Shown: positions 1 to 60,531, counted from the stretch's first letter. The stretch is 64,000 nt of DNA from an uncultured Rhodobacterales bacterium (GCA_964499865.1 CAZCPY010000001.1:102238-166237), one strand, 5' to 3'. The notes: a model not told the origin generated them from the letters alone. A program made the numbers and translations.

Positions 1-15
1 ACGAGCGAGTGCCTC

Positions 16-648
16 GTGGCACCAACGGATCCTACCAACTTAGCGCTACAGAGGAAACTTCAGATTCAGTTCATAGACGATGTATCTGAGCGCGCCTACC
101 TCTCGGCACTTAAGAATCCGGATATAGCAGAATCTCGTCGAAATCAATATCGTAGGCGATTAGCTGCAAGACGGAACGAGATTGGACAGGTCTACAAGTC
201 TACGGCGCCGAGTATAGACTTCAATTCGCCGATAGACGCCTCATTGCTTGGAGAAGTACTGTCTCTATCTAATCTCGATATCACCGACTTCCTTGACGGG
301 CTTACACAAGTTGATCCGAATCAGGCCGGAGCTTACGGCACGCCTTCTCCAGAGGATTCATTTGATCTTGATCAAATCGATGCGACAGCTGTGCCTGAGA
401 TAACAACTAACGCGCTAGCAACAGGCGAGAAGCCCGTTTGGTGGGTCAGTGGCATTAATTTTCCATTGACGTTTGTGACTACAACGGCCGTACAACTTCC
501 TAAGCTTCGTATAGCCGCTACAGAATACCAGCGACAACAGCTGATTAAGCTGCTAGGTATACCTTCGGGCGCCGACGAATCGGACTTCCTTAACAAAGAC
601 CAACTGCAGGCACTTAATAATCTCGCGACCAGTCTAGTAAAATTCTAA
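16..648 (+). CDS. hypothetical protein, probably 5'-truncated by the window edge
   Basis: Frame is open from nt 1, with no stop before the GTG at 16. The stop at 646-648 lies 1 nt before the ATG of the next + gene. Confidence 0.5.
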   Translation: MAPTDPTNLALQRKLQIQFIDDVSERAYLSALKNPDIAESRRNQYRRRLAARRNEIGQVYKSTAPSIDFNSPIDASLLGEVLSLSNLDITDFLDGLTQVDPNQAGAYGTPSPEDSFDLDQIDATAVPEITTNALATGEKPVWWVSGINFPLTFVTTTAVQLPKLRIAATEYQRQQLIKLLGIPSGADESDFLNKDQLQALNNLATSLVKF

Positions 649-649
649 T

Positions 650-3600: not shown

Positions 3601-3931
3601 CTCTGTGGGCTCGCTCGCTAATCTAGCGGCGTGCGGGTATAAAGTCGCACCAAAGAATTTCACGCAAGGTTCGTTCCAGCTAGAGCTTGATAACTTCCAT
3701 ATCATGATAGTTCTGGTAGAGGCTGCGAGAGCTATTCCCACGGCTGATCAACCGGCCTTGTTGCGCGCCATCAGAGCTATGATTCGTAACGACGCGAATA
3801 ACTTCGAAGCTTCACTGGACAGTCTTATTAAGAGCGCCATTTCTAGTGCTGGTGGTAAATACCATATAGCGCAGTTGGCGCCAGCGGCCGCCTGGATTGA
3901 AGCTGCCCCGAACTTATTCGCTGGTCTATGA
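650..3931 (+). CDS. large protein of unknown function (1093 aa), possibly virion-associated or enzymatic
   Basis: Uninterrupted 3.3-kb ORF with an ATG directly after the upstream stop, followed by a hairpin terminator. I cannot name any signature motif. Confidence 0.75.
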   Translation: MATIGGKTIILNSTVETFFTGTNKVVMRAVDAYDNVYTASISPNLSNSSSYVVEKAGSQMATVRTHNVLFGTTITTPAKLLDRFFAVHAFWTFIAGRPVLELALNIHNSAIDPAQIDEVQAAGQAVLINRSTMADLYFKRVEIVLEGTTMNRVLTIPEYLDNGVTNVLGNNVWTMWREEPGGTPYRIVGTQSDLTAPVGTLHSLHQNAERQHRAVLYVVGGNNLQEAQCLARLEGFGVARASVNEQLEPTWSWQNQNCAGYEVQRHLVPSPESVANIASTIEGLQYTTFFNGLSNGTRINPTAGGLSVDDESTLGYRLGIFHPVGFIYGGSTGGNGIFQTFGSEITACNSTKGILWAMMRDRCANDRSSDGMYTYTGEPLSLEALENPGAVADKFKFLNAAGYGQVWNGFRPLRQGLFNHFDWNSSRIGDLDEPFGHAFALAGASGQYHSIPSDKIPYYVNAPARLLSCASVPPNVDLDVPANKIGATGDPDINDITPILNVYSSQWGNSSGGGAKISTYVWSHITRRVFSLRPLVYLLNDPMAKLKILALAQQERIYLPDKAVNYKGAPATTRNKADKESTFVRAFRIMQASPVSRNRGFDIGRAEGWWLHLVSEGLYLSPPSSPARAALKEALDRALEVCALIQMPNGFFQGRYSPQIGGYAQTTYGCRAAQIMEHGIFTNGLLSAYKAAYAGQEAPGNIAETARNVTKLAAEMIWKYAWAFKNADNTQFVANDNGSESGRRPMGGPFTNFPVSPYYRLQGNAFTNPVTTPANKYTFTSQVEIPPPALEGNLWGYGIPRSNTAAVTQFTLPFIPQILRPYQDTGNSNRVGLEVVFSAPGDFTNSNLPFFLQPNVQNYTGLSITNTYTGNKSWINLFSSVVAGRPMTYVNNSKVFSGGSTTFTYRYRPWDVTTAPAYNASTMADLVFGFDFDNTAQLYATPLALYSGVPASEFSDPESSWPYPLSSWQDPYPLQNKPSFPKNFSVGSLANLAACGYKVAPKNFTQGSFQLELDNFHIMIVLVEAARAIPTADQPALLRAIRAMIRNDANNFEASLDSLIKSAISSAGGKYHIAQLAPAAAWIEAAPNLFAGL

Positions 3932-3934
3932 CGT

Positions 3935-3968
3935 AAAAAAAAAAGAGAGCCGCGTTTCGGCGGCTCTC
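3935..3968 (-). terminator. Rho-independent terminator between convergent genes
   Basis: GAGAGCCGC-GTTTCG-GCGGCTCTC forms a 9-bp stem at 3945-3968. It is preceded on the + strand by A10 (3935-3944), which gives a T10 tail on the minus strand after gene 3978..5153. Confidence 0.7.
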
Positions 3969-3977
3969 TCTATTCAT

Positions 3978-5153
3978 TCAAACTGCGTAGTCATCGTACG
4001 GCAGTTTACTCGACGAGCTCGGCACAGCTCTCAGTGTGAAAGGCGCATACGTAGCAAGATACGTGCCGTCGTCTTGCATTTTGAAGTCTCCAGGGCTGAT
4101 GTCGAACGCCATTTGAACGTTGGCCCCGGCCGGAACGATTTTGGTCGTATCGGCGGCGTCAGCGTCATCGTCATCAGCATTTCTACGGTATCGAGTGAAG
4201 TTGGTGACGACGAATCCATGCGTAAGGAGTTCTTCCTTTGTCGTCGACTCCGCCGTGATACCGTATACGTAGACCCCGTTGTAGCGACATTTGCTGGGAT
4301 TTCCTTCGAGGCTATTCGGAGAAATCACCAATCCTCTGACCAGGGAGATCGACGATTCGAACAACAACCCAAATTCCGCGTATTCGCGTTGAATGTTGAG
4401 AACGCTCAGAGCGTCCTTAACAGTGGCGCGCGGGTTGAAGTCGAGCTCGTCGATTAGCGTCATGATTGAGTCGTAACCGGTACCGGTCAGCTCAGCCACG
4501 ATGTCGTCGAATTCCTCCTTCGTGATCGACCGTTTGAGATTGTCGGTCACGATCTGCAGCAGCTCCTTACCAGACAGGCCACCGTACGAGAAATGGTATC
4601 TGGCGCGATCAGGCCGTCCGAAAAACTCGCTTCGGATCTTTTCCTTACTGTTCGCCAGAATGACGTATAGGTTCCCGCCGCCAATAGAGCCGTCAAGGAT
4701 CGACAACAGCGGCACCTGATCGTCTTCGTCGTAGTGCTTCTCGAATTCATCGAAACACACCACCACCGGCGAGGTCAGGTTGTTGAGGAACGTCTGCAAA
4801 GCGCTACCACTGATGGTCGTCGTGATATGCAGGACGGAAATTCCCGCTTTGATCATCCGATCAGCGACGATGTTGGCGGTCATCGTCTTTCCGCTTCCTC
4901 GCAGGCCGGTCAGCAGAACACCCATTTGCTTGTTCGGCCGACGCACATAGGCATCGACGATCCTGTCAGCGATTTGCTGCGCGTTTCCGTACAGTTTTGT
5001 CGGAATCGCAGCCGGGTTGTTGATCGGGCGGAGGCACACGTTCCCGTCACCGTCGATCATGACTTTGTAGTGTCCGACCGGCAGATTCGGATTCAGGCTG
5101 CTGAAGTTGTGGGCGTAGATGTTCCCACCGCTGTTCGAGAAGAGCGCGTTCAT
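3978..5153 (-). CDS. AAA+ family ATPase
   Basis: Walker A GLRGSGKT and Walker B VVVCFDEFEK at typical AAA+ spacing. ATG start. Confidence 0.8.
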   Translation of the reverse strand: MNALFSNSGGNIYAHNFSSLNPNLPVGHYKVMIDGDGNVCLRPINNPAAIPTKLYGNAQQIADRIVDAYVRRPNKQMGVLLTGLRGSGKTMTANIVADRMIKAGISVLHITTTISGSALQTFLNNLTSPVVVCFDEFEKHYDEDDQVPLLSILDGSIGGGNLYVILANSKEKIRSEFFGRPDRARYHFSYGGLSGKELLQIVTDNLKRSITKEEFDDIVAELTGTGYDSIMTLIDELDFNPRATVKDALSVLNIQREYAEFGLLFESSISLVRGLVISPNSLEGNPSKCRYNGVYVYGITAESTTKEELLTHGFVVTNFTRYRRNADDDDADAADTTKIVPAGANVQMAFDISPGDFKMQDDGTYLATYAPFTLRAVPSSSSKLPYDDYAV

Positions 5154-5239
5154 GTTTGGTTCGGGGACGGAGGTAGAGAACTGTGTCTCAGTCTGAATTT
5201 AGGTTTTGTAGTACGTTGCGCATGGCGGCCCGCTGCAGG

Positions 5240-5614
5240 TCAGGGCCTTGGCGTCTTGGTCATCAGAAGCTGGATTTCTTTTCCATCCGACAGTATGGTG
5301 CAGCTGAACCCGACGAAATCTGGGAACCAGAGCACTCCTACCTCTATGGTCGGTATTGCTTCGTCATATTCAGGCAACTCGTAAAGACAGATACGAGGAG
5401 GTCTGTCCGCAGCGAGTGAGTCGCCATCTCTGTGGACGTAATCTATCATTGCGCAGAGCCTGTGGTGTTTCGAGCTAGCCACCTCTAAGGTGAACAGGGC
5501 GATGTGCTCTGTACAGTGCTCCGCGTGCGCGTACACCGTTGGTTTGACGTGTTGTGTATCACCCTCCACTCTGATGAGCCGGTATGTTAGCCCTTTTATT
5601 GTTTTTGTTTCCAT
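5240..5614 (-). CDS. hypothetical protein
   Basis: 124-aa ORF with ATG start, co-oriented in the minus-strand block. Shares an FPDF(V/T)G(F/W) patch with the 5956..6441 product. Confidence 0.55.
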   Translation of the reverse strand: METKTIKGLTYRLIRVEGDTQHVKPTVYAHAEHCTEHIALFTLEVASSKHHRLCAMIDYVHRDGDSLAADRPPRICLYELPEYDEAIPTIEVGVLWFPDFVGFSCTILSDGKEIQLLMTKTPRP

Positions 5615-5619
5615 TTTTG

Positions 5620-5901
5620 CTAGGTTTTCAGACTCTGTATGGCGGGCCTGTCGTTTAGTCGACAGAACTCCAGGTATTCGAATTCCGGCTCGCCGAGTTC
5701 ATACAGATTACCGTATGCATTCAAGGCGAACCGAGTATCGATACCGACGCGGATGATTGGTCCGGTATACAGAACGTGCGCCTCCTTTCCAGCCGCATAC
5801 GCGTGGCCACAGAGGAGAATATCTCCCCTGTTACTCGCGTCTTCGATCGGAACGTACTCGCCGTCCTCACTAACCAGACTCCAGTTTTCCATCAGTTTCA
5901 T
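5620..5901 (-). CDS. hypothetical protein
   Basis: The ORF track starts at the GTG at 5925, inside the promoter-like motif. I prefer the first ATG (MKLMENW) at 5901. Confidence 0.5.
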   Translation of the reverse strand: MKLMENWSLVSEDGEYVPIEDASNRGDILLCGHAYAAGKEAHVLYTGPIIRVGIDTRFALNAYGNLYELGEPEFEYLEFCRLNDRPAIQSLKT

Positions 5902-5923
5902 GTGACTTAAAGTGGCACCATTC

Positions 5924-5936
5924 ACTTATGCCACAA
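5924..5936 (-). promoter_or_regulatory. promoter-like motif TTGTGGCATAAGT (minus strand)
   Basis: One of about 12 same-orientation copies of this motif upstream of minus-strand genes. An A7 tract lies about 10 nt upstream. Confidence 0.4.
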
Positions 5937-5955
5937 CTGCGCGAGGTTTTTTTCG

Positions 5956-6441
5956 TTACAGGGAGCTCAGCGGCACAGTAAACGTAACCGGAGCGAATCG
6001 ACGAACTAAGGCCAGTTGAACTGGCGGCCAAGGCTTCTTGCGTGAGCGTCCACGGGCCGGTGCGAATGAGTGGTCTGTCGCGCTGTGTCTACCAGCACTG
6101 ACACGCCAACCCGTAAAATCCGGGAAAGAGATAGTGACCTCGTTCGACGGTTCCCTCCCATCTTCGGAGTAAAACCAATTTTCGAAGGTGGCCATGGCGC
6201 GCTGACGTTCGATCGGGAGATGGTTGTCTGCGTTCATGTGAGTACTATCCAGATTCAGGGTGTAGCCGTGTTCGGAGAGATCTTCTAGGTGAAGATACAC
6301 GAGGTTGTCTGTGATGTGCTCCGGAAGAGCAACTGCGTAAGAACTGATGATGTTCTCATGCCCATGTACTTCGAAAAGTACATACTTTCGCGATCCGATT
6401 GTGATTTCTCTCATGGTGTGGCGTAACTCAGACAGGATCAA
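5956..6441 (-). CDS. hypothetical protein
   Basis: 161-aa ORF. Alternative start MREITIG at 6412 would remove the 14-nt overlap with the upstream gene. Confidence 0.55.
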   Translation of the reverse strand: MILSELRHTMREITIGSRKYVLFEVHGHENIISSYAVALPEHITDNLVYLHLEDLSEHGYTLNLDSTHMNADNHLPIERQRAMATFENWFYSEDGREPSNEVTISFPDFTGWRVSAGRHSATDHSFAPARGRSRKKPWPPVQLALVRRFAPVTFTVPLSSL

Positions 6442-6757
6442 GAAGGCGGTCGCATTCTTTAATCGCGTTGTCGAGCAGTTCGAGGATGTCTTCTTGAGTG
6501 ACGCCAGGTTTATCGTTGTACCGCGCGAGGCCGTCTGAATTGCCAGCAGGCATCACGTTTCGGAGAGCTTGCGCGGCTGCGCCTACTTTGGCCACAGAAA
6601 AGTCCGTATCATCCATTTGCTCACACAGAGCCCACACAAGGCAGACAGATCCAGCATCGTTTTTTGCTTTGCCTTTACTCCAGTCGTTCGGATTCTGCAG
6701 CCTTTCCCGCGTTTTTTGTAATACGCTTAGTGCGAGTGCAGCAGTTGACACGCTCAT
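6428..6757 (-). CDS. hypothetical protein (start trimmed)
   Basis: The ATG at 6757 (MSVSTAAL) forms an ATGA overlap with the upstream stop at 6754. Contains a W-x-K-G...G-x-x-C-L-x-x-A patch seen in small phage proteins. Confidence 0.55.
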   Translation of the reverse strand: MSVSTAALALSVLQKTRERLQNPNDWSKGKAKNDAGSVCLVWALCEQMDDTDFSVAKVGAAAQALRNVMPAGNSDGLARYNDKPGVTQEDILELLDNAIKECDRLLDPV

Positions 6758-7314
6758 GGCGGTCCGGTTATCGTTGGGTTGAACCACGCCGGTTGTTCTC
6801 TGATCGTCCATTTTGCGAAAGAGTGTTTGTAGCGGTTGTAGTAGTTTCGGTACGCAGTTACAACGGACGGATCCTTACAATCGTCCGGCATAGCCTGCAC
6901 GAATGGTACATAATTAGGGGTTAACGGAATATTTTCCGGCGTATACCACAAGAATTGTCGCAGCTCCTGACACTTGTGAAGCTTACCGTATCGAAATGTG
7001 TACTCTTCTAGCAGGTGACGGAACAACGTAAACGTCCACTCATACGTGAATGTATTTTGCCTGACCCACACACTGCACGGGTGGTTTATGTGACTCACCT
7101 TGTACAAGGCGTTGTTCCGCTCAGGCATCCTAAGCTGGTACGGTCGCACTATGGTCCCGCCGGCGCCGTCATCAACTTCTACGGGCCGCCCGTCGAGCAC
7201 TCGATGCGCTGTAGATAGCAGCTGCGCCGTTTCAAGTACCATCTTTACGACGTGCTTGTCACAATGCATCTTGGCCGCCTCTATGGGGTCATAGGCCAAT
7301 ACAAAGATGTTCAT
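6754..7314 (-). CDS. conserved phage/giant-virus protein (N-terminus MNIFVLAYDPIEAAKMHCDKHVVKM)
   Basis: The internal ATG at 7314 forms an ATGA overlap with the upstream stop at 7311. I recall this N-terminal pattern from a widespread viral family sometimes annotated as pyrimidine-dimer glycosylase-like. Function not verified. Confidence 0.6.
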   Translation of the reverse strand: MNIFVLAYDPIEAAKMHCDKHVVKMVLETAQLLSTAHRVLDGRPVEVDDGAGGTIVRPYQLRMPERNNALYKVSHINHPCSVWVRQNTFTYEWTFTLFRHLLEEYTFRYGKLHKCQELRQFLWYTPENIPLTPNYVPFVQAMPDDCKDPSVVTAYRNYYNRYKHSFAKWTIREQPAWFNPTITGPP

Positions 7315-8006
7315 TCGTCGCGCAGCTCGTGCCTTAGGTTTGTGTCTTCTACCATGTATAGGCCGTCCGTAACAGTAACTACGAACGGGCCTCGAAGCCT
7401 GGGATGATACATATCCTGGCACGCGGCGTTAATTCGCATCGGCGATTGGCCGCTGTCTGTGACGACTCCGCCAGATGCTCCTCGTGACTCATGTATATGT
7501 CCGCAGACGTGAAGCCGAAAGTTCACGTCTTTCAGCCTCTCTGCCAAGTACGGGCAGCCCACACGAGGTGATGCGATATCCACGACATCATGCACGCCAA
7601 ATGCAGGACAGTGCGTTACAACGATGTCCACCGTATCTGGTATCTGGTCCCAGTATTGCTTGATTTCTGGTCCGTGAACATTGAAGGCCCAGCCGTGAAA
7701 GTACGGTTGAAATGAAGACCCAAAAATTTTCAATCCGGCCACATCCGCCAATCCTTGAATCAAGATGTGCGTATTCCTGAATAATCTATGCGCCTGGTCC
7801 GGTTTTCTTTGAAATAACCAGTCGTGATTACCTGGAATAAACACTTTGTGCTCGAACTCTTGCTTATTCCACCACTGAGCAAATTGGTTGGTCTGATCTT
7901 CTGTGCCGTAAGGAGTCGCGTCTCCTGCATGAATTAGCACATCTCCGGAAAGGTCACCTAATTGTTTGTGGTAGCCATGAGTGTCGCTGATTAGCACTAT
8001 CTTCAT
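7311..8006 (-). CDS. calcineurin-like metallophosphoesterase
   Basis: Motifs ISDTHG, GDATPYG, GNHD, VVTHCP and GHIHE in canonical order. Confidence 0.8.
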   Translation of the reverse strand: MKIVLISDTHGYHKQLGDLSGDVLIHAGDATPYGTEDQTNQFAQWWNKQEFEHKVFIPGNHDWLFQRKPDQAHRLFRNTHILIQGLADVAGLKIFGSSFQPYFHGWAFNVHGPEIKQYWDQIPDTVDIVVTHCPAFGVHDVVDIASPRVGCPYLAERLKDVNFRLHVCGHIHESRGASGGVVTDSGQSPMRINAACQDMYHPRLRGPFVVTVTDGLYMVEDTNLRHELRDE

Positions 8007-8027
8007 ATATGTAAAGTAGATGAAAGC

Positions 8028-8061
8028 ACCATAAGGCGCACCTTATAGTGCGCCTTATGGT
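8028..8061 (-). terminator. strong hairpin (14-bp stem, 6-nt loop), candidate terminator
   Basis: ACCATAAGGCGCAC-CTTATA-GTGCGCCTTATGGT lies between the stop at 8068 and the start at 8006. The downstream T-tract is only modest. Confidence 0.5.
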
Positions 8062-8067
8062 TACCGA

Positions 8068-8574
8068 TCAGTTCAGACCACTCTCGGTACGGCCGACCGT
8101 ATCCCAGCTGAAGGTCTCAGTATGCCCGCCAGTCTGTTGTGTGGCGTGAGCCATGGGCGCGGCCCGAACCTGCGAGGGATCCAGGTCATTCAGGCGCTTC
8201 AGTTCGTTCTGAACGCTACGCAGGGTGTCCTGTACCTGCGCCAGCTCGGAGGCGAACTGGGTACGCCGACGGTTCAACCGCTCTTGCACATTGCTAGCGC
8301 GCTCGCGGCCCTCCGCTTCGGTTTCGAAATGCGCGAATGTGGCCGTAAAGCCATCGAGCTGTGTCATGACAGCATTACGCTCTTTCATGACGTTTCCAAT
8401 CGACTTGGCGTAGTACAACAGGTTAGACGGTAGAACGACCGTTGACATTCTAACGCCGGGGCGCGGGTCAAGATTACGTTCGTTGATCTCCGTCGTCACA
8501 ATGTCGTTTTGGTTGATGAAACCCGCCGGAGCAAATTGGAAGCTTGTTTGGTTCTGCATAATAGTTGAATTCAA
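8068..8574 (-). CDS. hypothetical protein (coiled-coil C-terminal half)
   Basis: 168-aa ORF with ATG start, flanked by hairpins on both sides. Confidence 0.6.
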   Translation of the reverse strand: MNSTIMQNQTSFQFAPAGFINQNDIVTTEINERNLDPRPGVRMSTVVLPSNLLYYAKSIGNVMKERNAVMTQLDGFTATFAHFETEAEGRERASNVQERLNRRRTQFASELAQVQDTLRSVQNELKRLNDLDPSQVRAAPMAHATQQTGGHTETFSWDTVGRTESGLN

Positions 8575-8655
8575 TTGTGTTTGTTGAGACTACCGGAATA
8601 AAGAAATCTATTCCAGGTAGAGTTGTTTCTATCATCTTGTAAAGATAGAAGAAGT

Positions 8656-8688
8656 AAGGGCTACCCGGCATTGCGTCGGGTAGCCCTT
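8656..8688 (-). terminator. hairpin terminator candidate
   Basis: AAGGGCTACCCG-GCATTGCGT-CGGGTAGCCCTT forms a 12-bp stem directly after the stop at 8695. T-rich sequence follows on the minus strand. Confidence 0.5.
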
Positions 8689-8694
8689 GGTTTG

Positions 8695-9174
8695 TCAGAG
8701 GCGTTCTTCTTTGGGGGTACCCCAGTAGAAGATCCACCTGAGCGGGCGACTCAGTGCCCGCCAGTAGCGTCGAAGAACCGCCTTGAACGACGGCACGCTC
8801 TTCTTGCCGTTAGCGGCTTTTCGCTCCGCGGCGGTGGCCAGGTAAATGACTGCCAGCCGCTCATCGAATGAGACTCCGAAGTCTTTTGGCAGTACCCGCC
8901 AGCCGGTCAACAAGTTACCACCGTGCGGGCTGTCGAGAAGGTAGCAGTCCTCGTTGTCGTACCAGGCCAGCGTGCGCCCTGTCTCTTCGGACGCCCACTG
9001 AGCGGCGTCACGGACATTTCGGAAGAAGCGGGTCTTTTCACCCACCTCGACCTTGACGTCGAGTGCCCTTGCGAATCCCAGGATCGTCCTGGCATCCTCT
9101 GTCTTGCTGCCGAACTCTGTGATCTTGTCCAAACCACGTTCGGCCAGCCGGATCCAGTCTGTCTTTCCAGCCAT
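8695..9174 (-). CDS. hypothetical protein
   Basis: 159-aa ORF with ATG start and an AGGAG-like sequence upstream (gagattagag on the minus strand). Confidence 0.6.
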   Translation of the reverse strand: MAGKTDWIRLAERGLDKITEFGSKTEDARTILGFARALDVKVEVGEKTRFFRNVRDAAQWASEETGRTLAWYDNEDCYLLDSPHGGNLLTGWRVLPKDFGVSFDERLAVIYLATAAERKAANGKKSVPSFKAVLRRYWRALSRPLRWIFYWGTPKEERL

Positions 9175-9242
9175 CTCTAATCTCCTGTAGAGTTGTAGTA
9201 AGTCCAGTTACTACTCTGTGACCAGTAAAGCACCAGTCATAT

Positions 9243-9254
9243 ACTTATGCCACA
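9243..9254 (-). promoter_or_regulatory. promoter-like motif TGTGGCATAAGT
   Basis: Minus strand reads CGAAAAAAGGGCTAAAATGTGGCATAAGTAT, about 70 nt upstream of the start at 9174. Confidence 0.4.
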
Positions 9255-9278
9255 TTTTAGCCCTTTTTTCGCCGCGTA

Positions 9279-9401
9279 TCAGCAGAGTAAAGAGCAGAAT
9301 AGCCAAATCAGGAACTTACCGATCATGAATAACCAGATAAGTGTGAGAATGACTATCACTGACGTGGCTATACGATCGTATGTTCTGGGTTCTAAATTCA
9401 A
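9279..9401 (-). CDS. possible 40-aa hydrophobic micro-protein
   Basis: TTG start just after the ThyX-like stop. Product is MNLEPRTYDRIATSVIVILTLIWLFMIGKFLIWLFCSLLC, with one transmembrane-like stretch. Not in the ORF track because it is under 60 aa. Confidence 0.3.
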   Translation of the reverse strand: MNLEPRTYDRIATSVIVILTLIWLFMIGKFLIWLFCSLLC

Positions 9402-14502: not shown

Positions 14503-14642
14503 TTTGTGTGTGTGTGGTTTGTATGCCTCAATACGGCCTCATCTCGTCGCGTATTTGATCATCCATTAGGGGTGTTGGTATGTGCTTTCAGTATTTGCGT
14601 AAAATTATCGACATCAATATGAGGTAAATACCTCATCATTGT

Positions 14643-14652
14643 TCTTATGCCG
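14643..14652 (-). promoter_or_regulatory. promoter-like motif variant (CGGCATAAGA)
   Basis: Minus strand reads TACGGCATAAGAACAATG, between the end of array 1 and the MazG-like gene. Confidence 0.3.
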
Positions 14653-14713
14653 TAATTAGGTGTGGTTTTTGTAGTAAAGTACCCAGCCTTGTTAATACAG
14701 GACTGGATACTTT

Positions 14714-14896
14714 TCAATGTTGCTCTGAGAGACCGTTCCCAAGACTACACCCTCCTCCGAATCCATATGTCATCCTGTGCCAGGTTCCAGTCCCGTGACC
14801 ATTTCCACGCCAATTTCTATGTCCACTCCCGTAGCCATTCCCGTCCACGGCTCCGTACGCAGGCCGGGTTCCATATCCATAATCGTTAGTCTTCAA
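14714..14896 (-). CDS. Gly/Tyr-rich small protein, array 1 member 10 (60 aa)
   Basis: TTG start overlaps the upstream TGA (TTGA), with AGAGGAA 7 nt upstream. Product is MKTNDYGYGT…GGGCSLGNGLSEQH. Confidence 0.6.
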   Translation of the reverse strand: MKTNDYGYGTRPAYGAVDGNGYGSGHRNWRGNGHGTGTWHRMTYGFGGGCSLGNGLSEQH

Positions 14897-15093
14897 TGTT
14901 TTATTCCTCTGCCAATTCCGTTTCCTTTGTAACCGCCATACCCGTCCCCGCACCAATCTTCGCCCATAGAACGTATACGCCCCCCACATCCATCCCCGAA
15001 CCCACGCTCATACCAACCACCAAACCAATGCCCGTTCCCGTACCCGTCTCCAACTCCATACTCGTCGCCAGTTCCGAAATTATTAATCTTCAA
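14893..15093 (-). CDS. Gly/Tyr-rich small protein, array 1 member 9 (66 aa)
   Basis: TTGA overlap with GGAGGAG upstream. Product is MKINNFGTGDEYGVGDGYGNGHWFGGWY…YKGNGIGRGIKH, 23 of 66 residues Gly by my count. Confidence 0.65.
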   Translation of the reverse strand: MKINNFGTGDEYGVGDGYGNGHWFGGWYERGFGDGCGGRIRSMGEDWCGDGYGGYKGNGIGRGIKH

Positions 15094-15206
15094 TGTCTTA
15101 CTCCTCCTTTTCCTCTTCCAGTCCAGTAGTGAGGTCCGCACCCATATCCGTACCCGTAACCATCTCCAAACCCATACCCAAACAAACTCCAATGTCCATT
15201 CCCGTA
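15032..15206. repeat. 175-nt segment identical to 38491-38665
   Basis: Base-by-base comparison of the two stretches shows no mismatch. It spans the 3' half of member 8, the junction and the 5' part of member 9. Confidence 0.9.
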
Positions 15207-15287
15207 CCCGCGCCCACCCCCGTACACAACCATATATCTATTTCCGTTTGTAAACCAGCCACCACTTCCGGTGTCACGAATATTCAA
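15090..15287 (-). CDS. Gly/Tyr-rich small protein, array 1 member 8 (65 aa)
   Basis: TTGA overlap. Product is MNIRDTGSGGWF…GNGHWSLFGYGFGDGYGYGYGCGPHYWTGRGKGGVRH. The 3' half is identical to the array 3 copy. Confidence 0.65.
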   Translation of the reverse strand: MNIRDTGSGGWFTNGNRYMVVYGGGRGYGNGHWSLFGYGFGDGYGYGYGCGPHYWTGRGKGGVRH

Positions 15288-15487
15288 TGTTTCACTCCTT
15301 TTCCATTTCCCTTGTAATTCTCGTTTCCGCGCCCGTATCCGCCTCCACACCCAGACCAACCCCCATACCCACACCCATTTCCGTTCATATACCCGTGTCC
15401 GTCCCCCCGCGTTGATCCATATACGTGCCCGTTCCAGCACCCAGTCTTAAGCCACTCTGCACTTTCTTCCTTATTATTAATAATCAA
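15284..15487 (-). CDS. Gly/Tyr-rich small protein, array 1 member 7 (67 aa)
   Basis: TTGA overlap with AAAGGAG upstream. Product is MIINNKEESAEWLKTGCWNGHVYG…YKGNGKGVKH. Confidence 0.6.
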   Translation of the reverse strand: MIINNKEESAEWLKTGCWNGHVYGSTRGDGHGYMNGNGCGYGGWSGCGGGYGRGNENYKGNGKGVKH

Positions 15488-15654
15488 TGTTTCTCTCCTT
15501 TTCCGTTTCCAGTCCAGGTGCAAGGCCAACGCCCATACCCTGCTCCATTCCCATCCCGTCTATCGATCCCGCACCCACGCCCGTACACACGCCCGTATCC
15601 ACGCCCAGTTCCTATTATAAGTCCGGTTCCATATCCATAATCGTTAGTCTTCAA
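15484..15654 (-). CDS. Gly/Tyr-rich small protein, array 1 member 6 (56 aa)
   Basis: TTGA overlap. Product is MKTNDYGYGTGLIIGTGRGYG…TWTGNGKGEKH. Confidence 0.6.
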   Translation of the reverse strand: MKTNDYGYGTGLIIGTGRGYGRVYGRGCGIDRRDGNGAGYGRWPCTWTGNGKGEKH

Positions 15655-15833
15655 TGTTTTATTCCTCTGCCAATTCCGTAGTAACCTTCGGGACCGTTTC
15701 CAGATCCGTTTCCATTTCCGCACCCATACTTGTCTCCATCCCCGCGCTCGTACAAACCACCAAACCAATCCCCATTCCCGAACCCACGTCCATATCCACA
15801 CCAGTTTCCACTTCCGTTGTTATTGATCTTCAA
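15651..15833 (-). CDS. Gly/Tyr-rich small protein, array 1 member 5 (60 aa)
   Basis: TTGA overlap. Product is MKINNNGSGNWCGYGRGFGNGDWFGG…YYGIGRGIKH. Confidence 0.6.
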   Translation of the reverse strand: MKINNNGSGNWCGYGRGFGNGDWFGGLYERGDGDKYGCGNGNGSGNGPEGYYGIGRGIKH

Positions 15834-16000
15834 TGTTTTCTTCCTCTGCCTCTTCCGTAGAAAGTTCCGGTGCCGGCCCCGTATCCAATCCCGTGCCCGT
15901 ATCCAAACAAACTCCAATGTCCAGAACCGCATCCGTCTCCAATCTTGACCCATTCCCAGTCCGTAAATCTGGCGCCACTTCCATTGTCATTAATCTTCAA
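15830..16000 (-). CDS. Gly/Tyr-rich small protein, array 1 member 4 (56 aa)
   Basis: TTGA overlap. Product is MKINDNGSGARFTDWEW…GTGTFYGRGRGRKH, with the same C-terminal tail as array 2 member C. Confidence 0.6.
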   Translation of the reverse strand: MKINDNGSGARFTDWEWVKIGDGCGSGHWSLFGYGHGIGYGAGTGTFYGRGRGRKH

Positions 16001-16191
16001 TGTTTTCTTCCTTTTCCATTTCCATTCCAGTTGTATTGCCCGTGCCCAAAACCACCCCCGTGCCCATTCCAGAATCCATATCCTTTCCCGCCACAGCCAC
16101 CAGACCCGTATCCTCTCCCGGATAAATTTCCGACCCCATGCCAGAGTCCACATGCACTCCGGTTTCCAGTTCCGTAGTCATGAATATTCAA
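15997..16191 (-). CDS. Gly/Tyr-rich small protein, array 1 member 3 (64 aa)
   Basis: TTGA overlap. Product is MNIHDYGTGNRSACGLWHG…QYNWNGNGKGRKH. Confidence 0.6.
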   Translation of the reverse strand: MNIHDYGTGNRSACGLWHGVGNLSGRGYGSGGCGGKGYGFWNGHGGGFGHGQYNWNGNGKGRKH

Positions 16192-16388
16192 TGTTTTCTT
16201 CCTCTACCGTTTCCGATTTCGCTATGATTTATATACCCATGCCTACGCCCATTTCCATATACGTATTTATCTCCAAAGTGGTGTCCATATCCAGTTCCAT
16301 TCCCATACTTATACCATTTCCCATTTCCAAACCCATTTCCGTAGCCATTCTTAGCACCGTCGCCACTTCCGTATTTGTTAATTTTCAT
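16188..16388 (-). CDS. Gly/Tyr-rich small protein, array 1 member 2 (66 aa)
   Basis: ATG start in an ATGA overlap with member 1, preceded by AAGGGAAGGAAACA. Product is MKINKYGSGDGAKNGYGNGFGNGKWY…IGNGRGRKH. Confidence 0.65.
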   Translation of the reverse strand: MKINKYGSGDGAKNGYGNGFGNGKWYKYGNGTGYGHHFGDKYVYGNGRRHGYINHSEIGNGRGRKH

Positions 16389-16540
16389 TGTTTCCTTCCC
16401 TTTCCATTCCCGTCGTGCGAGCCTGACCCGAGCCCATATGCTCGACTTTTAGATCGATTATTTTTACAGGCGCGCCGCTTACGACCGCCTCCATATCCTT
16501 GGCCTGTTCGAGAAAACTTGGTGTCGTAGTTTATTTTCAT
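16385..16540 (-). CDS. basic Gly-rich small protein, array 1 member 1 (51 aa)
   Basis: Not in the ORF track because it is under 60 aa. ATG at 16540. Product is MKINYDTKFSRTGQGYGGGRKRRACKNNRSKSRAYGLGSGSHDGNGKGRKQ, which shares the family N- and C-terminal ends. Shine-Dalgarno signal is weak. Confidence 0.45.
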   Translation of the reverse strand: MKINYDTKFSRTGQGYGGGRKRRACKNNRSKSRAYGLGSGSHDGNGKGRKQ

Positions 16541-16572: not shown

Positions 16573-16599
16573 AGCGCTCCCGATTTTACTCGGGAGCGC
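16573..16599 (-). terminator. hairpin between gene 16605..16928 and array 1
   Basis: AGCGCTCCCG-ATTTTACT-CGGGAGCGC forms a 9-10-bp stem 6 nt after the stop. The U-tract is weak, so it may only attenuate. Confidence 0.45.
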
Positions 16600-16604
16600 G
16601 AATC

Positions 16605-16928
16605 TCACAGCCGCTTTGCCGCGCGCACAACAAGGCACATAGCCTTGAGGCGCCGGCGGCGCGCCTTCGCAGACGGTACAGATTGGAACCCGTACCCGCT
16701 GCGAAGCTGCAGATGCAGCGGCCGCACATACTGCATCAAAGTCGCCCGGTTCTTCACCGTGCGATTCTCCAATGCAACCATGACCGCCTCGAGGATGGTC
16801 ATGGCGTACAGCCGCTGGTGCGGCTTGGTACGTCTGCTGACTTTCGCAGCCCTGCTAAGAGCTGCGACGACCCACGCCGGATCAAGCGGCGCGGTCTTCA
16901 AGCGCTCGAGCGCTTCTGTGTATAGCAT
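16605..16928 (-). CDS. hypothetical protein
   Basis: 107-aa ORF with ATG start. First gene downstream of the promoter-like motif at 17103. Confidence 0.55.
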   Translation of the reverse strand: MLYTEALERLKTAPLDPAWVVAALSRAAKVSRRTKPHQRLYAMTILEAVMVALENRTVKNRATLMQYVRPLHLQLRSGYGFQSVPSAKARRRRLKAMCLVVRAAKRL

Positions 16929-20800: not shown

Positions 20801-20900
20801 GGTACCTCCTAGTACTTGCAGTTCTGTCGCAATCCTTGCGACGAGGGAGTAAGTAGAATTACCCACTCATTTACTTATGCCACAAATGGGGGTATTTTTT
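20801..20900 (-). promoter_or_regulatory. conserved promoter plus structured 5' leader, copy 1
   Basis: A 100-nt block matches 44110-44209 at 92 of 100 positions. It holds an A-tract, TTTGTGGCATAAGT, two hairpins and the Shine-Dalgarno sequence TAGGAGG. Confidence 0.55.
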
Positions 20901-20903
20901 ACT

Positions 20904-20936
20904 AAAAAAAGACAGACCCACCGAAGTGAGCCTGTC
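20904..20936 (-). terminator. Rho-independent terminator
   Basis: Minus strand reads GACAGGCTCAC-TTCG-GTGGGTCTGTC followed by T7, downstream of the stop at 20960. Confidence 0.65.
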
Positions 20937-24182: not shown

Positions 24183-24548
24183 ATGGATAACATCGAAAAA
24201 GGCCTACGCCAAGCCTTTCAAAAGCAGGCGACCACACAAGTTCCCTCCCTAGAACAACACTTTCTATCTCTCGTAGAGAATGAAGGTCAAGTTAAGCAGG
24301 CCGCTGGTCCTCAAATCGGACCTCTTATTCGACGCGCTAAAGCGCAGCCCGCTCGTATGGACGCTGATGTTGCACCTAGATCAGGAATCCTAGATAAGGT
24401 CAGAGGAGCTGCTGGGCACGCTGTCGAATATGCTCAACAAAATCCTGAGATTGTCGGCGGCGGGGCCGCCGCTGCATTAGGTCTCGGCGCTGGCGCGCTT
24501 ATGCTGCGCGCCCGTGCTCGGCGTCGGCGCCAAGCCCAACAAGGCTGA
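24183..24548 (+). CDS. membrane-anchored protein (paralog 1 of 3)
   Basis: The C-terminal 60 aa are identical to those of the next gene (Ala/Gly transmembrane segment plus RARARRRRQAQQG tail). Confidence 0.6.
   Translation: MDNIEKGLRQAFQKQATTQVPSLEQHFLSLVENEGQVKQAAGPQIGPLIRRAKAQPARMDADVAPRSGILDKVRGAAGHAVEYAQQNPEIVGGGAAAALGLGAGALMLRARARRRRQAQQG
24364..24544. repeat. 181-nt perfect direct repeat, copy 1
   Basis: Identical base for base to 25119-25299. Encodes the shared C-terminal anchor. Confidence 0.9.
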
Positions 24549-24556
24549 GGTAGTTA

Positions 24557-25303
24557 GTGCTCACTATGCGTACAGGATTCGCGAAGGCCGCGGGAATGAC
24601 TGGACCTGGAGGCGCGGCGGCTGAGTCGGGTGTTGCCGGCGTCACAGGCCTGGCGTCGGCAGCTCGCCGTGTATTAAGAACGCCTGAGTGGTCCCATTCT
24701 CCTCCTCCCCCTGGTTATGGTTACAAGGCCTGGCTCAGTCAAAACGACACTCACGACCATAACTTCCGTTCGGACATGGAAGCGTACGATTGGCTTACGC
24801 AAAGCCCGCTAAATTTGAGAAACCAGGCAGAAACAGCGGCTAGAATGCGAGAAAGAGTAAAACAGCATGTGGAACAGGCGCCCACGCCCGACAGAACGTC
24901 CGCAGCAACTTTAAAAACACCTGAAGTGACAGGTCGAGGTCTTGATGCCGCGCCTAGAGGCCTATCGGATCACATCCATTCTGGGCATCCGTACTTTCAC
25001 CCGAGGGCATCAACCGCTAGTCAAGCATTAACTAGGCGCAACACCAGCGATGTGGTGCTTAGGCCCAAGACTCCGACTAGCGACATACACGTGGACGTCC
25101 TTCCCCGGAACCCGGCATCTGATGTTGCACCTAGATCAGGAATCCTAGATAAGGTCAGAGGAGCTGCTGGGCACGCTGTCGAATATGCTCAACAAAATCC
25201 TGAGATTGTCGGCGGCGGGGCCGCCGCTGCATTAGGTCTCGGCGCTGGCGCGCTTATGCTGCGCGCCCGTGCTCGGCGTCGGCGCCAAGCCCAACAAGGT
25301 TGA
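24557..25303 (+). CDS. membrane-anchored protein (paralog 2 of 3)
   Basis: GTG at 24557 lies 5 nt after GAGGTAG, and the ATG at 24566 is an alternative. Shares AGVTG…A-x-RR-x-L and TLKTPE-x-TG motifs with paralog 3. Confidence 0.6.
   Translation: MLTMRTGFAKAAGMTGPGGAAAESGVAGVTGLASAARRVLRTPEWSHSPPPPGYGYKAWLSQNDTHDHNFRSDMEAYDWLTQSPLNLRNQAETAARMRERVKQHVEQAPTPDRTSAATLKTPEVTGRGLDAAPRGLSDHIHSGHPYFHPRASTASQALTRRNTSDVVLRPKTPTSDIHVDVLPRNPASDVAPRSGILDKVRGAAGHAVEYAQQNPEIVGGGAAAALGLGAGALMLRARARRRRQAQQG
25119..25299. repeat. 181-nt perfect direct repeat, copy 2
   Basis: Identical to 24364-24544. Confidence 0.9.
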
Positions 25304-25310
25304 TACACTT

Positions 25311-26087
25311 ATGTCGTCTAATTTTACGCGTCTAACTAAAGCAGCTAATGCACGTAACGCGGCGGTGGCTGGGCTAGGTGTTGCCGGCGTCACAGGCGTG
25401 GCGCTGGCATCTCGTCGTGCATTAGATAGGCACATCTACGGCTCTAGATTGAACCATAGTCCTCATAGTCCCGCACCGACTTTAAAAACGCCTGAAGCGA
25501 CCGGTGTAGACGTCATTCCCCGGAACCCGGCGTCTAGTGCGGCATTGCGGCATCATTGGGCGCAGGCGACTGGTCGTAGCGGCGCTGCACCGCCTAAATC
25601 AGGGATCCAAGGTGAATCAACGCCTGAAGCGACCGGTCGTATCGTCGATGCCACGCCTACAAGCACACCTGCTCCTAGCGTCTTTGACCACATCTCTTCT
25701 GTTGCTAAAGCGAATACTGAAAGGGCAGCTACGGGAGTCGCCAAAGCGAAAGCGCGAGTTGCTGAAGCACTTAGTGAACATAATGGTGTGGGTAGCCTCA
25801 AGGGCATTATGGATAGGTATCGAGCCGCGCCGTACGGAACCAAGCATCTGTCCCAGCCTCAAGGAAAAGGCGTGGATCTCGCGGACGCTATGAAGCCTAC
25901 GCCAGATGCAGAAAAACTTCTTAGCTCGCTACACAACAAAGGCTTGTTTGGTCACATCTCTCCTGAGCATGCAGTAGGTTACGGCGCAGCCGCCGCTGGC
26001 GCGGCCGGTTTAGCATACTACGCTAAGAAACGCTGGGATAAGTTCCAGAAAAATAGACAACTTCAAAAGCAATACGGTCTACGTTAA
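25311..26087 (+). CDS. membrane-anchored protein (paralog 3 of 3)
   Basis: Start trimmed to the ATG at 25311 (MSSNFTRL), just after the upstream stop. C-terminal Ala/Gly hydrophobic segment. Confidence 0.6.
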   Translation: MSSNFTRLTKAANARNAAVAGLGVAGVTGVALASRRALDRHIYGSRLNHSPHSPAPTLKTPEATGVDVIPRNPASSAALRHHWAQATGRSGAAPPKSGIQGESTPEATGRIVDATPTSTPAPSVFDHISSVAKANTERAATGVAKAKARVAEALSEHNGVGSLKGIMDRYRAAPYGTKHLSQPQGKGVDLADAMKPTPDAEKLLSSLHNKGLFGHISPEHAVGYGAAAAGAAGLAYYAKKRWDKFQKNRQLQKQYGLR

Positions 26088-43791: not shown

Positions 43792-44106
43792 TCAAAGCCG
43801 GACGCGATGTTCGAAGCGTCGCGGCTGGCCGCCTCTCGACGATATCCACAACCCCTGGTCGGAGTTGTAGAAATCGGTGGTCCTGCGCGCCACTGCGCGC
43901 AACCACTGCACCGCCTCAGTGACGACCGTCCACAGATCGGCGTCGCCACGTAAGCTTGCGGTCGCACGCAAGCGGCAAATCAACGTTACCAACCGGCTTT
44001 CAGCCAGTTGGTCTCCGTTCTTTGCCGATGCGAGCAGCTCCTTCAGCTGCTCGATCACGGCCGCCCTGTCAAAAGGGATCAGCGGTGAGTATTCCGGTGC
44101 GAACAT
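43792..44106 (-). CDS. hypothetical protein (start trimmed)
   Basis: The ATG at 44106 (MFAPEYSPL) is preceded by TAGGAGGTACCCGT. The upstream part of the track ORF is the conserved leader. Confidence 0.5.
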   Translation of the reverse strand: MFAPEYSPLIPFDRAAVIEQLKELLASAKNGDQLAESRLVTLICRLRATASLRGDADLWTVVTEAVQWLRAVARRTTDFYNSDQGLWISSRGGQPRRFEHRVRL

Positions 44107-44109
44107 ACG

Positions 44110-44209
44110 GGTACCTCCTAGTACCTGTAGTTCTGTTGCAGTCCTTGCAACGAGGGAGTAGGTAGAATTACCCACTCATTTACTTATGCCATAAATGAGG
44201 GTATTTTTT
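44110..44209 (-). promoter_or_regulatory. conserved promoter plus structured 5' leader, copy 2
   Basis: Matches 20801-20900 at 92 of 100 positions. Core motif here is TTTATGGCATAAGT. Confidence 0.55.
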
Positions 44210-44271
44210 CTTATTGAAAGAGTATCTATCATATGTAAACCTACAATAGCGCAGACCTAGCGTAGATACAT

Positions 44272-60433: not shown

Positions 60434-60531
60434 GACTCTCCTGTCAAGTTTGGTGGCGCGAAAGCGGTCGCGCACCGGAGAAAGAATCGGGGTCAGCTTC
60501 GGCTGACTCCTGATTAGGTTCTTTCAATCAT

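Follow-up and report, generated by a model that had tools for sequence, protein, structure and literature searches.

Does the minus strand of an uncultured large phage, of about 189 kb, really encode a tandem series of tiny overlapping genes between positions 16540 and 14714 of the window studied here (the whole 64,000 nt stretch of DNA that was analysed), and if so, what might their glycine-rich products do? The original prediction, made from the sequence alone, was of ten back-to-back, translationally coupled cistrons, and walking the strand from 16540 reproduced these exactly. The first, at 16540-16385 (51 aa), and the second, at 16388-16188 (66 aa), start with ATG, whilst the remaining eight, at 16191-15997 (64 aa), 16000-15830 (56 aa), 15833-15651 (60 aa), 15654-15484 (56 aa), 15487-15284 (67 aa), 15287-15090 (65 aa), 15093-14893 (66 aa, of which 23 are glycine) and 14896-14714 (60 aa), start with TTG; the junctions are formed by one ATGA and eight TTGA overlaps. 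The first acts as a leader cistron: it lacks a Shine-Dalgarno (SD) sequence, instead having a CA/A-rich leader like those of ordinary genes of this phage, is rich in lysine and arginine (net charge +11.6), is only weakly composed of (Gly-X)n repeats, and ends GNGKGRKQ. Between it and the upstream 107-aa gene (16605-16928) lies a 10-bp stem-loop on the same strand (16574-16599; GCGCTCCCGA gtaaaa TCGGGAGCGC), followed by a U-rich stretch, which could be a weak terminator or attenuator, or a 5' stabiliser, although it was not picked up by a strict terminator scan. The last cistron ends LSEQH and is followed by a tenth TTGA, leading into a 52-aa ORF that is not glycine-rich (14717-14559); however, a weaker copy of the phage's repeated promoter-like motif (14634-14670) lies within this ORF, hence its reality is uncertain.

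Two further arrays on the minus strand bring the total in the window to 17 units, as originally predicted. Array 2 (23598-22709) consists of five cistrons of 49, 64, 64, 62 and 58 aa, all with TTG starts and TTGA overlaps; it sits at a divergent intergenic region, is headed by a relic of the last codons of an upstream cistron (AACGGAAAAGGAGGAAAACA) that supplies the SD motif, and is followed by a 16-aa stub at 22712-22662 (MKIRAIGSRPSDRARN), a decayed unit that retains the TTG AAG ATT start. Array 3 (38728-38409) has two cistrons of 59 and 47 aa, with a leader homologous to the junction between the first and second cistrons of array 1, whereas the near-identical contigs L001 and L002 have three (55, 48 and 57 aa). 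A fourth array, of eight units plus a leader cistron, was found on L036/L055, contigs from the same metagenome study. Hence the family is larger than originally described, comprising about 28 units in four arrays.

The number of units also varies between assemblies that are 99.6-99.9% identical. Three independent sister assemblies (L003, L004 and L005) carry 328 nt more in array 1, equal to two units, and walking L003 and L004 gives 12 cistrons. The eighth cistron in the window is a hybrid of their units 8 and 10, with the junction of a deletion or assembly collapse near 15159, and its 3' half is 92-97% identical to the first unit of array 3; a 6-nt in-frame indel additionally makes the third cistron 66 aa long in the sister assemblies. 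Units are mosaic and shared between arrays, with the reading frames always kept, which is the pattern expected from unequal recombination at the conserved junctions. However, the differences in unit number could be artefacts of short-read assembly, as several contigs break in the arrays (L005 and L006) and another, L007, joins the DNA upstream of array 3 to that downstream of array 1 through the array repeats.

The maintenance of a single open frame is far beyond chance. The 17 units have no internal stops in the predicted frame, against 34 and 46 in the other two sense frames, and in 400 neutral-mutation simulations at 5-15% divergence all 25 repeat units never stayed open; on average 5-14 did so. 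All 60 ungapped nucleotide matches between unit cores are in the same codon phase, both the 6-nt and 328-nt strain differences preserve the frames, and the arrays share the orientation of their flanking genes. The antisense Pro/Ser-rich frames are open only because they are the in-phase complement of GGN codons; that frame has four stops in 17 units, and no third-position signal favours it. A protein-guided pN/pS of 0.44, against 1.24 and 0.90 in shifted frames, also agrees with coding, but this measure is biased by the protein-guided alignment. Unbiased nucleotide alignments show no third-position excess (0.26/0.21/0.25 and 0.262/0.263/0.285 over the three positions), core residues other than glycine show no excess of third-position change, and strain SNPs in the arrays are three synonymous to four non-synonymous. 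Classical purifying selection on the peptide sequence is therefore not demonstrated; selection is visible on reading-frame integrity, glycine periodicity and composition, but not on the exact sequence. We are nevertheless confident that the arrays are coding and coupled, although in the absence of expression data for this uncultured phage, the host of which is unknown, translation, the UUG starts and SD function are all inferred.

Every junction is a 4-nt stop/start overlap, in nine of nine cases in array 1 and 24 of 24 across the four arrays, with an AGGA(G/A) motif ending 6-7 nt before the start. All 24 carry GGA at -11 to -9, AAA at -5 to -3 and (A/T)TGA; the synonymous third positions -9 and -3 are 100% A, and position -6 is 88% A although the amino acid encoded there varies (R/G/V/I/E). 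Hence the conserved C-terminus, GNGKGxKH, is at least partly an RNA-level signal, spelling AAAGGAG, an A-rich spacer and the TTG start, and should not be read as a peptide motif alone. The same leader precedes the first TTG of arrays 2 and 3, where no upstream cistron survives. By contrast, ordinary genes of the phage show SD-like motifs at chance level (8 of 43), though they use ATG starts and ATGA overlaps, such that 4-nt coupling is native to this phage. If the host ribosome does not use SD pairing, as the rest of the genome hints, the conserved AAGGAG may have another role. The anatomy suggests that ribosomes load at the ATG of the leader cistron and then pass from one cistron to the next by termination-reinitiation, the last codons of each (GGA AAA GGA GnA AAA CAT TGA) serving at the same time as SD motif, spacer and overlapping UUG start, with the first codons of the next (AAG ATT AAY) being AU-rich. 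The choice of GGA or GGG for 80% of glycine codons, against 30% in nine reference genes (chi-square p = 1e-47), keeps the mRNA purine-rich (66%), C-poor (13%) and weakly folded, with a folding energy of -29.4 against -41.1 kcal/mol per 150 nt (p = 1e-14).

An alternative is that the units are fused into one long glycine-rich polyprotein, by programmed -1 frameshifting at each junction or by reading TGA as Gly or Trp. Each next cistron is indeed in the -1 frame, which is open for tens of codons upstream of each TTG, and a run of A's and an SD-like stimulator precede the stop. However, there is no X XXY YYZ slippery heptamer in the zero frame, nine to eleven consecutive shifts would yield almost no full-length product, and arrays 2 and 3 start with the same TTG context without an upstream cistron. 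Furthermore, TGA is the commonest ordinary stop in this phage (25 of 43 genes), and reading through it leads into a frame closed by TAA at the next junction. We regard this possibility as very unlikely.

It might also be that the peptides are irrelevant, and that the functional entity is the RNA, the DNA or the act of translation: a purine- and GGA-rich RNA sponge, a recombination-prone repeat, a ribosome or tRNA-Gly(UCC) sink, a translational delay line for downstream genes, or simply expanding low-complexity DNA of little function. The strongest conservation is at the nucleotide level in the junctions, and the DNA looks like a degenerate (GGR-NAY) hexamer repeat, since 86% of X codons follow a simple NNY pattern and 80% of glycine codons are GGR; the GGA density and purine richness are also unusual. 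However, no conserved RNA structure was detected, the array RNA folds no better than shuffled sequences (z = -1.7), and there were no Rfam or tRNA hits. Aliphatic residues are avoided, which is a protein-level pattern, and the perfect preservation of one reading frame in 25-28 units cannot be explained without translation of that frame, although this is compatible with the translation-sink variants. Hence this explanation too seems improbable.

The predicted products are peptides of 47-67 aa, about 6-7 kDa, with glycine (31% of residues) at every second position, recurring at i+2 with a frequency of 0.20 against 0.026 at i+1. The intervening residues are mostly Tyr, Asn, Arg, Asp, His, Trp and Lys; Tyr, Trp and Phe together account for 15% of residues, and Arg and Lys for 12.5%. 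Most are mildly basic (median pI 9.1, median charge +2.5), with three slightly acidic members, and, as originally predicted, there is no signal peptide or membrane segment, no 15-residue window exceeding a mean Kyte-Doolittle hydropathy of 0.41. AlphaFold2 predicts no fold, with a mean pLDDT of 41.5 and no secondary structure. That the peptides are disordered and act through their composition therefore seems probable.

The original statement that these peptides could not be placed in any known family was also supported. Pfam gave nothing below E = 0.1 and NCBIfam nothing below E = 0.34; the best PHROGs hit had E = 0.03, in one of 17 peptides, and matches in the PDB were only to artificial GS linkers or RG tails. 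No homologue appeared in GenBank phages, IMG/VR or a library of 1.84 billion representative proteins, from which the only member recovered was the fifth cistron of array 1 (P0002). All testable parts of the original interpretation, concerning strand and frame, coupling, composition and family, therefore held.

Neighbouring genes include those for ThyX, Cpn10, an exonuclease and other small early-type proteins, and the arrays lie in operons with replication and nucleotide-metabolism genes rather than in the structural module. As selection is visible on open frames, glycine periodicity, composition and dosage rather than exact sequence, we propose that the peptides act in bulk, as multivalent aromatic and arginine 'stickers' on glycine spacers that bind nucleic acid and/or each other in a condensed phase in the infected cell. 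This is our best guess but a doubtful one, resting only on compositional analogy to FUS/hnRNPA1-type low-complexity and RGG regions, and the modest net charge is low for a nucleic acid binder; taken as a whole, from coupled coding to function, the explanation remains tentative. A bolder version, which we think unlikely, is that a dosage-amplified cocktail of about 28 FUS-like disordered mini-proteins, made from purpose-built serial-reinitiation mRNAs, forms or dissolves a condensed phase together with nucleic acid; this would be the first virus-encoded free-peptide system of this type in prokaryotes, with copy number tuned by unequal recombination.

Three other roles for the peptides were considered, each of which appears less likely. 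They might be antimicrobial or envelope-acting, being released at lysis, which would require no export signal, or acting on the host envelope from within in the manner of 'disruptin'-type cationic phage peptides. Their size (5-7 kDa), mostly basic charge and content of Gly, Tyr, Trp, His and Arg match this class, and the nlp and cnc clusters of C. elegans may likewise consist of diversified paralogues in tandem. However, they have no amphipathic or hydrophobic character, no lysis genes were recognised next to any array, and about 28 copies in four loci is excessive for a lysis accessory. The criteria for class II microcins or double-glycine-leader bacteriocins are likewise not satisfied, as there is no leader and no Peptidase_C39 or ABC transporter family appeared in scans of the window ORFs. 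Alternatively, the peptides could be loaded into the capsid and injected with the DNA, for charge neutralisation or anti-defence: the N-terminus is short and conserved (MKIN[D/N]xGxG) whilst the body is hypervariable, high dosage is implied by copy number, and disordered peptides could pass a tail channel. Yet the N-terminal conservation is explained at least as well by the translation-initiation region, as nucleotide conservation extends over synonymous sites; no head genes, prohead protease or cleavage motif was seen near the arrays, which lie on the strand opposite to the baseplate/tail-fibre module, and the peptides are only mildly basic.

Finally, they might be precursors of ribosomally synthesised, post-translationally modified peptides, such as cyclophanes of the triceptide/GrrA type (PMC11499958) or Tyr cross-linked or sulfated products, matured by an enzyme encoded elsewhere in the phage or by the host. 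There are many diversified cores between conserved ends, aromatic-Gly-X triplets are very frequent (including 11 YGR, 10 YGY and 8 YGN), the only library model to surface at all was the glycine-rich GrrA/OscA1 family (TIGR04260), and a sulfotransferase-like ORF lies at 61458-62216. However, the TIGR04260 hit is noise (9.2 bits against a cut-off of 31, E = 1.7, in one of 17 peptides), the excess of triplets follows trivially from the (Gly-X)n pattern, and the sulfotransferase is more than 22 kb from any array. There is no leader peptide, with only MKIN(D/N)x preceding the Gly-X repeat that starts at residue 7, and no radical-SAM/SPASM, YcaO, lanthipeptide synthetase, P450, protease or transporter family appears among about 70 window ORFs, although about 122 kb of the genome could not be inspected.

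Of the systems compared, one has at least 13 tandem paralogues that start M(K/R)I(N/D)G, followed by a (Gly-X)n region, and their last codons (CAT AGG AGG GTG TGA) embed an AGGAGG SD and a TGATG stop/start overlap; hhalign gives 94% probability over the first 15 columns. Those proteins, however, use ATG starts, are rich in Asp and Ile, and carry a conserved 45-aa C-terminal domain (…LYRMTPFAYLT…FHLQVEQLVHRRV) absent from the window and from all related loci. As an MKIN start behind a strong SD is common in viral contigs that have no Gly-rich body, homology is unproven. The T4-type internal-protein loci appear to share the arrangement of small, tandem, hypervariable phage genes with short conserved N-terminal sequences, recombination at the conserved ends shuffling the units, but there is no sequence similarity, internal proteins are probably not glycine-rich or of low complexity, and the conserved ends of the present arrays seem to be, at least in part, translation signals. 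The nematode nlp-29 and cnc clusters, and Gly/His-rich plant and arthropod peptides such as shepherins and acanthoscurrins, are probably similar in size, GYG/GNG-type composition and, as genes, in being tandemly duplicated and diversified; these are, however, likely to be secreted with signal peptides and transcribed as separate eukaryotic genes, whereas the phage peptides lack signal peptides and lie in one predicted translationally coupled mRNA. The low-complexity aromatic/glycine-rich and RGG regions of eukaryotic RNA-binding proteins such as FUS and hnRNPA1, including LARKS segments such as GYNGFG, appear to have the same alternation of glycine spacers with Tyr, Phe, Trp, Asn and Arg, and the phage peptides likewise have 0-6 RG/GR dipeptides and 3-16 aromatic-Gly contacts each and are predicted to be disordered. 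No sequence homology was detected, and the phage products differ in being encoded by a bacterial virus, in their strict Gly-X period of two, and in being free-standing peptides of 47-67 aa rather than domains of larger proteins.

Walking the minus strand from position 16540 yields exactly the ten cistrons described in the original prediction, encoding products of 51, 66, 64, 56, 60, 56, 67, 65, 66 and 60 aa. The first two start with ATG and the other eight with TTG, and each stop codon overlaps the next start, as ATGA once and TTGA eight times; the product encoded at 14893-15093 contains 23 Gly in 66 residues. The same procedure gives five units plus a 16-aa stub in a second array (23598-22662) and two units in a third (38728-38409), 17 in all. 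Downstream of unit 10 of the first array, a further TTGA leads into a 52-aa ORF that is not glycine-rich (14717-14559).

The surrounding sequence is part of a large phage, encoding a baseplate-J/wedge protein, a 1774-aa fibre-like protein, an SNF2-type helicase, an exonuclease, ThyX, a Cpn10 homologue and phosphoesterases. Three very large plus strand ORFs, of 2503 aa (44272-51783), 1093 aa (650-3931) and 768 aa (53662-55968), have no family match: the latter two gave no Pfam or PHROGs hit, whilst the 2503-aa ORF has no precomputed Pfam hit on record. Adjacent plus strand genes at 24183-26087 share a 185-nt stretch at 99% identity (24364-24548 and 25119-25303), as well as further 63-nt and 39-nt repeats, which looks like recent tandem duplication at the start of the structural module. 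No GenBank phage is close, with no match at the DNA level and the best protein matches being 25-36% identical, to Pseudanabaena phage PA-SR01, Salmonella phage Arash, Bacillus phage G and others. However, the same phage occurs, at 99.6-99.95% identity, in many assemblies of one ENA study (ERZ10661xx; runs ERR3440xxx and ERR3494xxx), including a 189,225-nt contig, and a 189,901-nt NCBI contig is listed as carrying a product (P0124) identical to one from the window. The next relatives of its exonuclease are at most 51% identical, and no glycine arrays were found within ±10 kb in the loci examined from distant relatives with an exonuclease about 45% identical (L020-L025).

The named frame has no internal stop in any of the 17 window units, whereas the other two sense frames have 34 and 46. 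When a fourth array, detailed below, is included, there are 25 intact units; mutating these neutrally by 5, 10 or 15% per site leaves only 14, 8 or 5 open on average, and all 25 remain open in 0 of 400 replicates. All 60 ungapped nucleotide matches of at least 36 nt between unit cores are in the same codon phase, and the indels distinguishing strains, of 6 nt and 328 nt, both keep every frame, the second being equal to two units because each unit period is 2 mod 3. Base composition is G-rich at codon positions 1 and 2 and nearly even at position 3, and the arrays run in the same direction as the flanking genes. The antisense Pro/Ser-rich ORFs are almost as open, with 4 stops in 17 units, but this follows from complementing GGN/NAY codons in phase and carries no independent support; these ORFs have no SD, lie opposite to the neighbouring genes and show no third-position signal. 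Each unit of the first array also contains an acidic Met/Glu/Asp/Thr/Gly-rich ORF of 36-63 aa in the +1 sense frame (minus strand, 14770-16494; e.g. 15820-15990 and 15990-16181), several of which start with ATG and many of which end at the junction TAA. These are by-products of TAT-GG/GGA-NAY codon strings, TAT-GG giving rise to ATG, and it is this frame that has 34 stops and does not tile the array. We conclude that the minus strand frame set is under selection to remain translatable.

Protein-guided codon alignments give a pN/pS of 0.44, against 1.24 and 0.90 in shifted frames, but this method favours the true frame. Alignments made on nucleotides alone show nearly equal change at the three codon positions, with values of 0.262/0.263/0.285 in one analysis and 0.26/0.21/0.25 in another, and seven strain-level SNPs in the arrays split 3 synonymous to 4 non-synonymous. 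What is conserved is the open frame; glycine at every second residue, with a Gly-Gly frequency of 0.20 at i+2 against 0.026 at i+1, with 0.096 expected; a restricted alphabet at the intervening positions (Tyr, Asn, Asp, Lys, Arg, Ser, Cys, Thr, His and Phe; 86% NNY codons); and the near absence of aliphatic residues. Therefore the peptides look to have been selected for composition and pattern rather than for a specific sequence, as is expected of function through bulk physicochemical properties.

Across 24 junctions from the four arrays, GGA at -11 to -9, AAA at -5 to -3, C at -2 and TGA are invariant. The synonymous third positions -9 and -3 are 100% A, and position -6 is A in 88% of junctions, although its codon encodes Arg, Gly, Val, Ile or Glu. 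Downstream, AAG ATT AAY G.. GGA NNT GG is conserved, again including third positions. The motif reads AAAGGAG(N)AAAACA-TTG, a Shine-Dalgarno core 6-7 nt before the start, and the same leader precedes the first TTG of the second and third arrays, where only the last 8-10 codons of a former upstream cistron remain. By contrast, 43 ordinary genes of the window have SD-like tetramers at chance frequency (8 of 43), with A/C-rich leaders (for example CACACACACAAA-ATG) and ATG starts; TGA is their commonest stop (25 of 43), and five gene pairs overlap as ATGA. This suggests a host with SD-independent initiation, and makes the strong SD inside the arrays stand out. The leader cistron of the first array, with its ATG, lack of an SD and A/C-rich leader, looks like these ordinary genes. 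The simplest reading is that ribosomes load normally on cistron 1 and are then handed on by termination-reinitiation at UUG, assisted by the embedded SD, although both remain inferences from the sequence; production of a fused polyprotein through -1 frameshifting, or through recoding of TGA, was rejected. The 'GNGKGxKH' ending noted in the original prediction as a feature of the peptides is thus largely the translation-initiation region of the next gene.

A candidate promoter was also identified on the minus strand: the 18-nt motif TGTGGCATAAGTAAATGA, preceded by an A-run, occurs five times with up to 2 mismatches (5918-5935, 9237-9254, 20867-20884, 44176-44193 and 60528-60545), against 0.01 expected by chance, with a weaker copy at 14634-14670. 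It sits immediately at the starts of minus strand genes and contains an ATG, and looks like a phage-specific promoter, possibly giving leaderless or very short-leader mRNAs, but no copy lies upstream of a glycine array. A 112-nt direct repeat, the copies of which (20801-20912 and 44110-44221) are 88% identical, embeds the motif.

A degenerate pattern based on the junction DNA found nothing in IMG/VR and only single chance hits in 185,579 reference genomes, whilst among 44 metagenome loci only two had real arrays, both from the same ENA study. These contigs, L036 and L055, carry the fourth array, comprising eight units of 52-64 aa plus a leader cistron, with seven TTGA and one ATGA junctions. 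Their flanks are not in the window, but the first 55 nt of L036 are identical to a repeat at 44104-44158, so the array probably lies elsewhere in the same genome. In three independent assemblies (L003, L004 and L005), the first array has 328 nt more than in the window; in L003 and L004 this resolves into 12 cistrons, with window unit 8 being a hybrid of their units 8 and 10. Similarly, in contigs L001 and L002 the third array has three units, where the window has two. Units are mosaics shared between arrays: unit 8 of the first array and unit 1 of the third share a 225-nt repeat at 92% identity, and motifs are shared by units 4 and 5 of the first array with units 3 and 4, respectively, of the second. 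This is the pattern of unequal recombination at conserved junctions, and unit number appears to change quickly. However, short-read collapse cannot be excluded, as several contigs, including L005 and L006, break inside arrays, and one (L007; ERZ1066114 NODE_449) joins the DNA upstream of the third array to the DNA downstream of the first through the near-identical segment common to their units 1 and 8; array lengths in any single assembly, including this window, should be treated with caution.

Glycine codons are 80% GGA/GGG in the arrays, against 30% in nine long reference genes (p = 1e-47), whereas two-fold codons differ much less. The sense strand is 66% purine and 13% C, and its predicted folding is much weaker than that of ordinary genes, at -29.4 against -41.1 kcal/mol per 150 nt (p = 1e-14). 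With a third of codons starting GG, the use of GGC or GGU would supply pairing partners for all those G's, which GGR avoids; we infer selection for an open mRNA, which suits serial reinitiation. A translation- or RNA-level role is among the alternatives to function of the peptides themselves, but no evidence was found for a structured RNA or known RNA family: there are no Rfam or tRNA hits in the window, no consensus pairs at the junctions, and the whole array does not fold better than shuffles (z = -1.7). Tandem Repeats Finder detects only a 12-nt micro-repeat, so this is not a simple satellite.

The peptides are 47-67 aa and 5.0-7.3 kDa, with a median pI of 9.1 and a median net charge of +2.5, ranging from -1.4 to +7.9 for the repeat units; the leader cistron is +11.6. 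GRAVY is about -1.1 and the highest 15-residue hydropathy is 0.41, so there is no signal or membrane segment. Cysteines number 0-4 and are not conserved. AlphaFold2, using the 17-member alignment, gives a mean pLDDT of 41.5, a pTM of 0.10 and no secondary structure.

No significant match was found in Pfam, NCBIfam, PHROGs or PDB sequences, with only artificial GS linkers and RG tails appearing in the last of these. The sole model to surface was TIGR04260 (GrrA/OscA1 cyclophane RiPP precursors), at 9.2 bits against a cut-off of 31. Triceptides are defined by radical-SAM-made cross-links on aromatic-X-X motifs (PMC11499958); however, no radical-SAM or other maturase family is present among about 70 window ORFs, and the peptides have no leader. 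A 252-aa minus strand ORF (61458-62216) does have a sulfotransferase domain (PF00685, E = 5.8e-6), and lies next to a BD-FAE/esterase-like ORF (62521-63444), but it is more than 22 kb from the nearest array and no link to the Tyr-rich peptides is supported. Homologue searches of GenBank phages using megablast, blastn and tblastn found nothing. A profile search of 5.8 billion proteins returned only products of this same phage (P0001 and P0124), and one of 1.84 billion representatives returned only the family's own member, unit 5 of the first array, although members of the profile itself are mostly not recovered, composition correction and gene-calling failures making these searches insensitive for this family. 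As sister contigs have these genes mis-called or uncalled, comparable arrays may be overlooked elsewhere.

Sub-threshold hits are small (46-114 aa), acidic (GYGDG)n proteins from metagenomes (P0125-P0145). One sits among small ORFs next to YqaJ and resolvase genes, a phage-like context (contig L085, 7001-7150), and alternating-glycine mini-proteins may be more widespread than annotation shows. A hint that comparable arrays may be overlooked came from one of these hits that led to L084 (ENA ERZ27321110 NODE_2393), a 12.7-kb contig with at least 13 tandem, overlapping paralogues of 84-127 aa (1-9336), which flank an AAA ATPase and a DUF2201 protein. Each has an M(K/R)I(N/D)G start, then a (Gly-X)n region, then a conserved 45-aa C-terminal domain (…LYRMTPFAYLT…FHLQVEQLVHRRV), and their last codons embed an AGGAGG SD and a TGATG overlap. 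This architecture is strikingly parallel to that of the glycine arrays, and hhalign gives 94% probability, but only over 15 N-terminal columns. The C-terminal domain was not found in six-frame translations of the window and all loci and is also absent from IMG/VR, whilst MKIN starts behind a strong SD are common in viral contigs with no Gly-rich body. No relatives of the L084 family were found in IMG/VR or PDB, the 'Lysis protein' hits in the latter being artificial His-tag/GS linkers. We therefore treat L084 as an analogue, possibly a relative.

The arrays are real and unusual, and as far as the libraries and literature searched here show, nothing comparable has been described for phages; by exclusion, they belong to no known kind. 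If the peptides are made, which in the absence of expression data or a cultured host is inferred, this phage spends about 5 kb, roughly 2.5% of its genome, on free, very short, alternating-glycine aromatic peptides produced as a mixture. The genetic design, in which one sequence serves as C-terminus, ribosome-binding site, stop and start, repeated up to 12 times, would make a clean natural model for termination-reinitiation and for non-ATG reinitiation. The function is a matter of speculation. Given that the arrays are amplified, appear selected on composition rather than sequence and sit with early-type replication genes, we favour, very tentatively, a bulk, multivalent binding or condensation role with nucleic acid; envelope-active or antimicrobial peptides, packaged internal peptides and RiPP precursors are alternatives. 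Without implying membership of any of these groups, the closest described systems by composition appear to be eukaryotic low-complexity/RGG regions and Gly/Tyr-rich antimicrobial peptide clusters, whilst by genetic architecture the closest are likely to be the T4 internal-protein loci.
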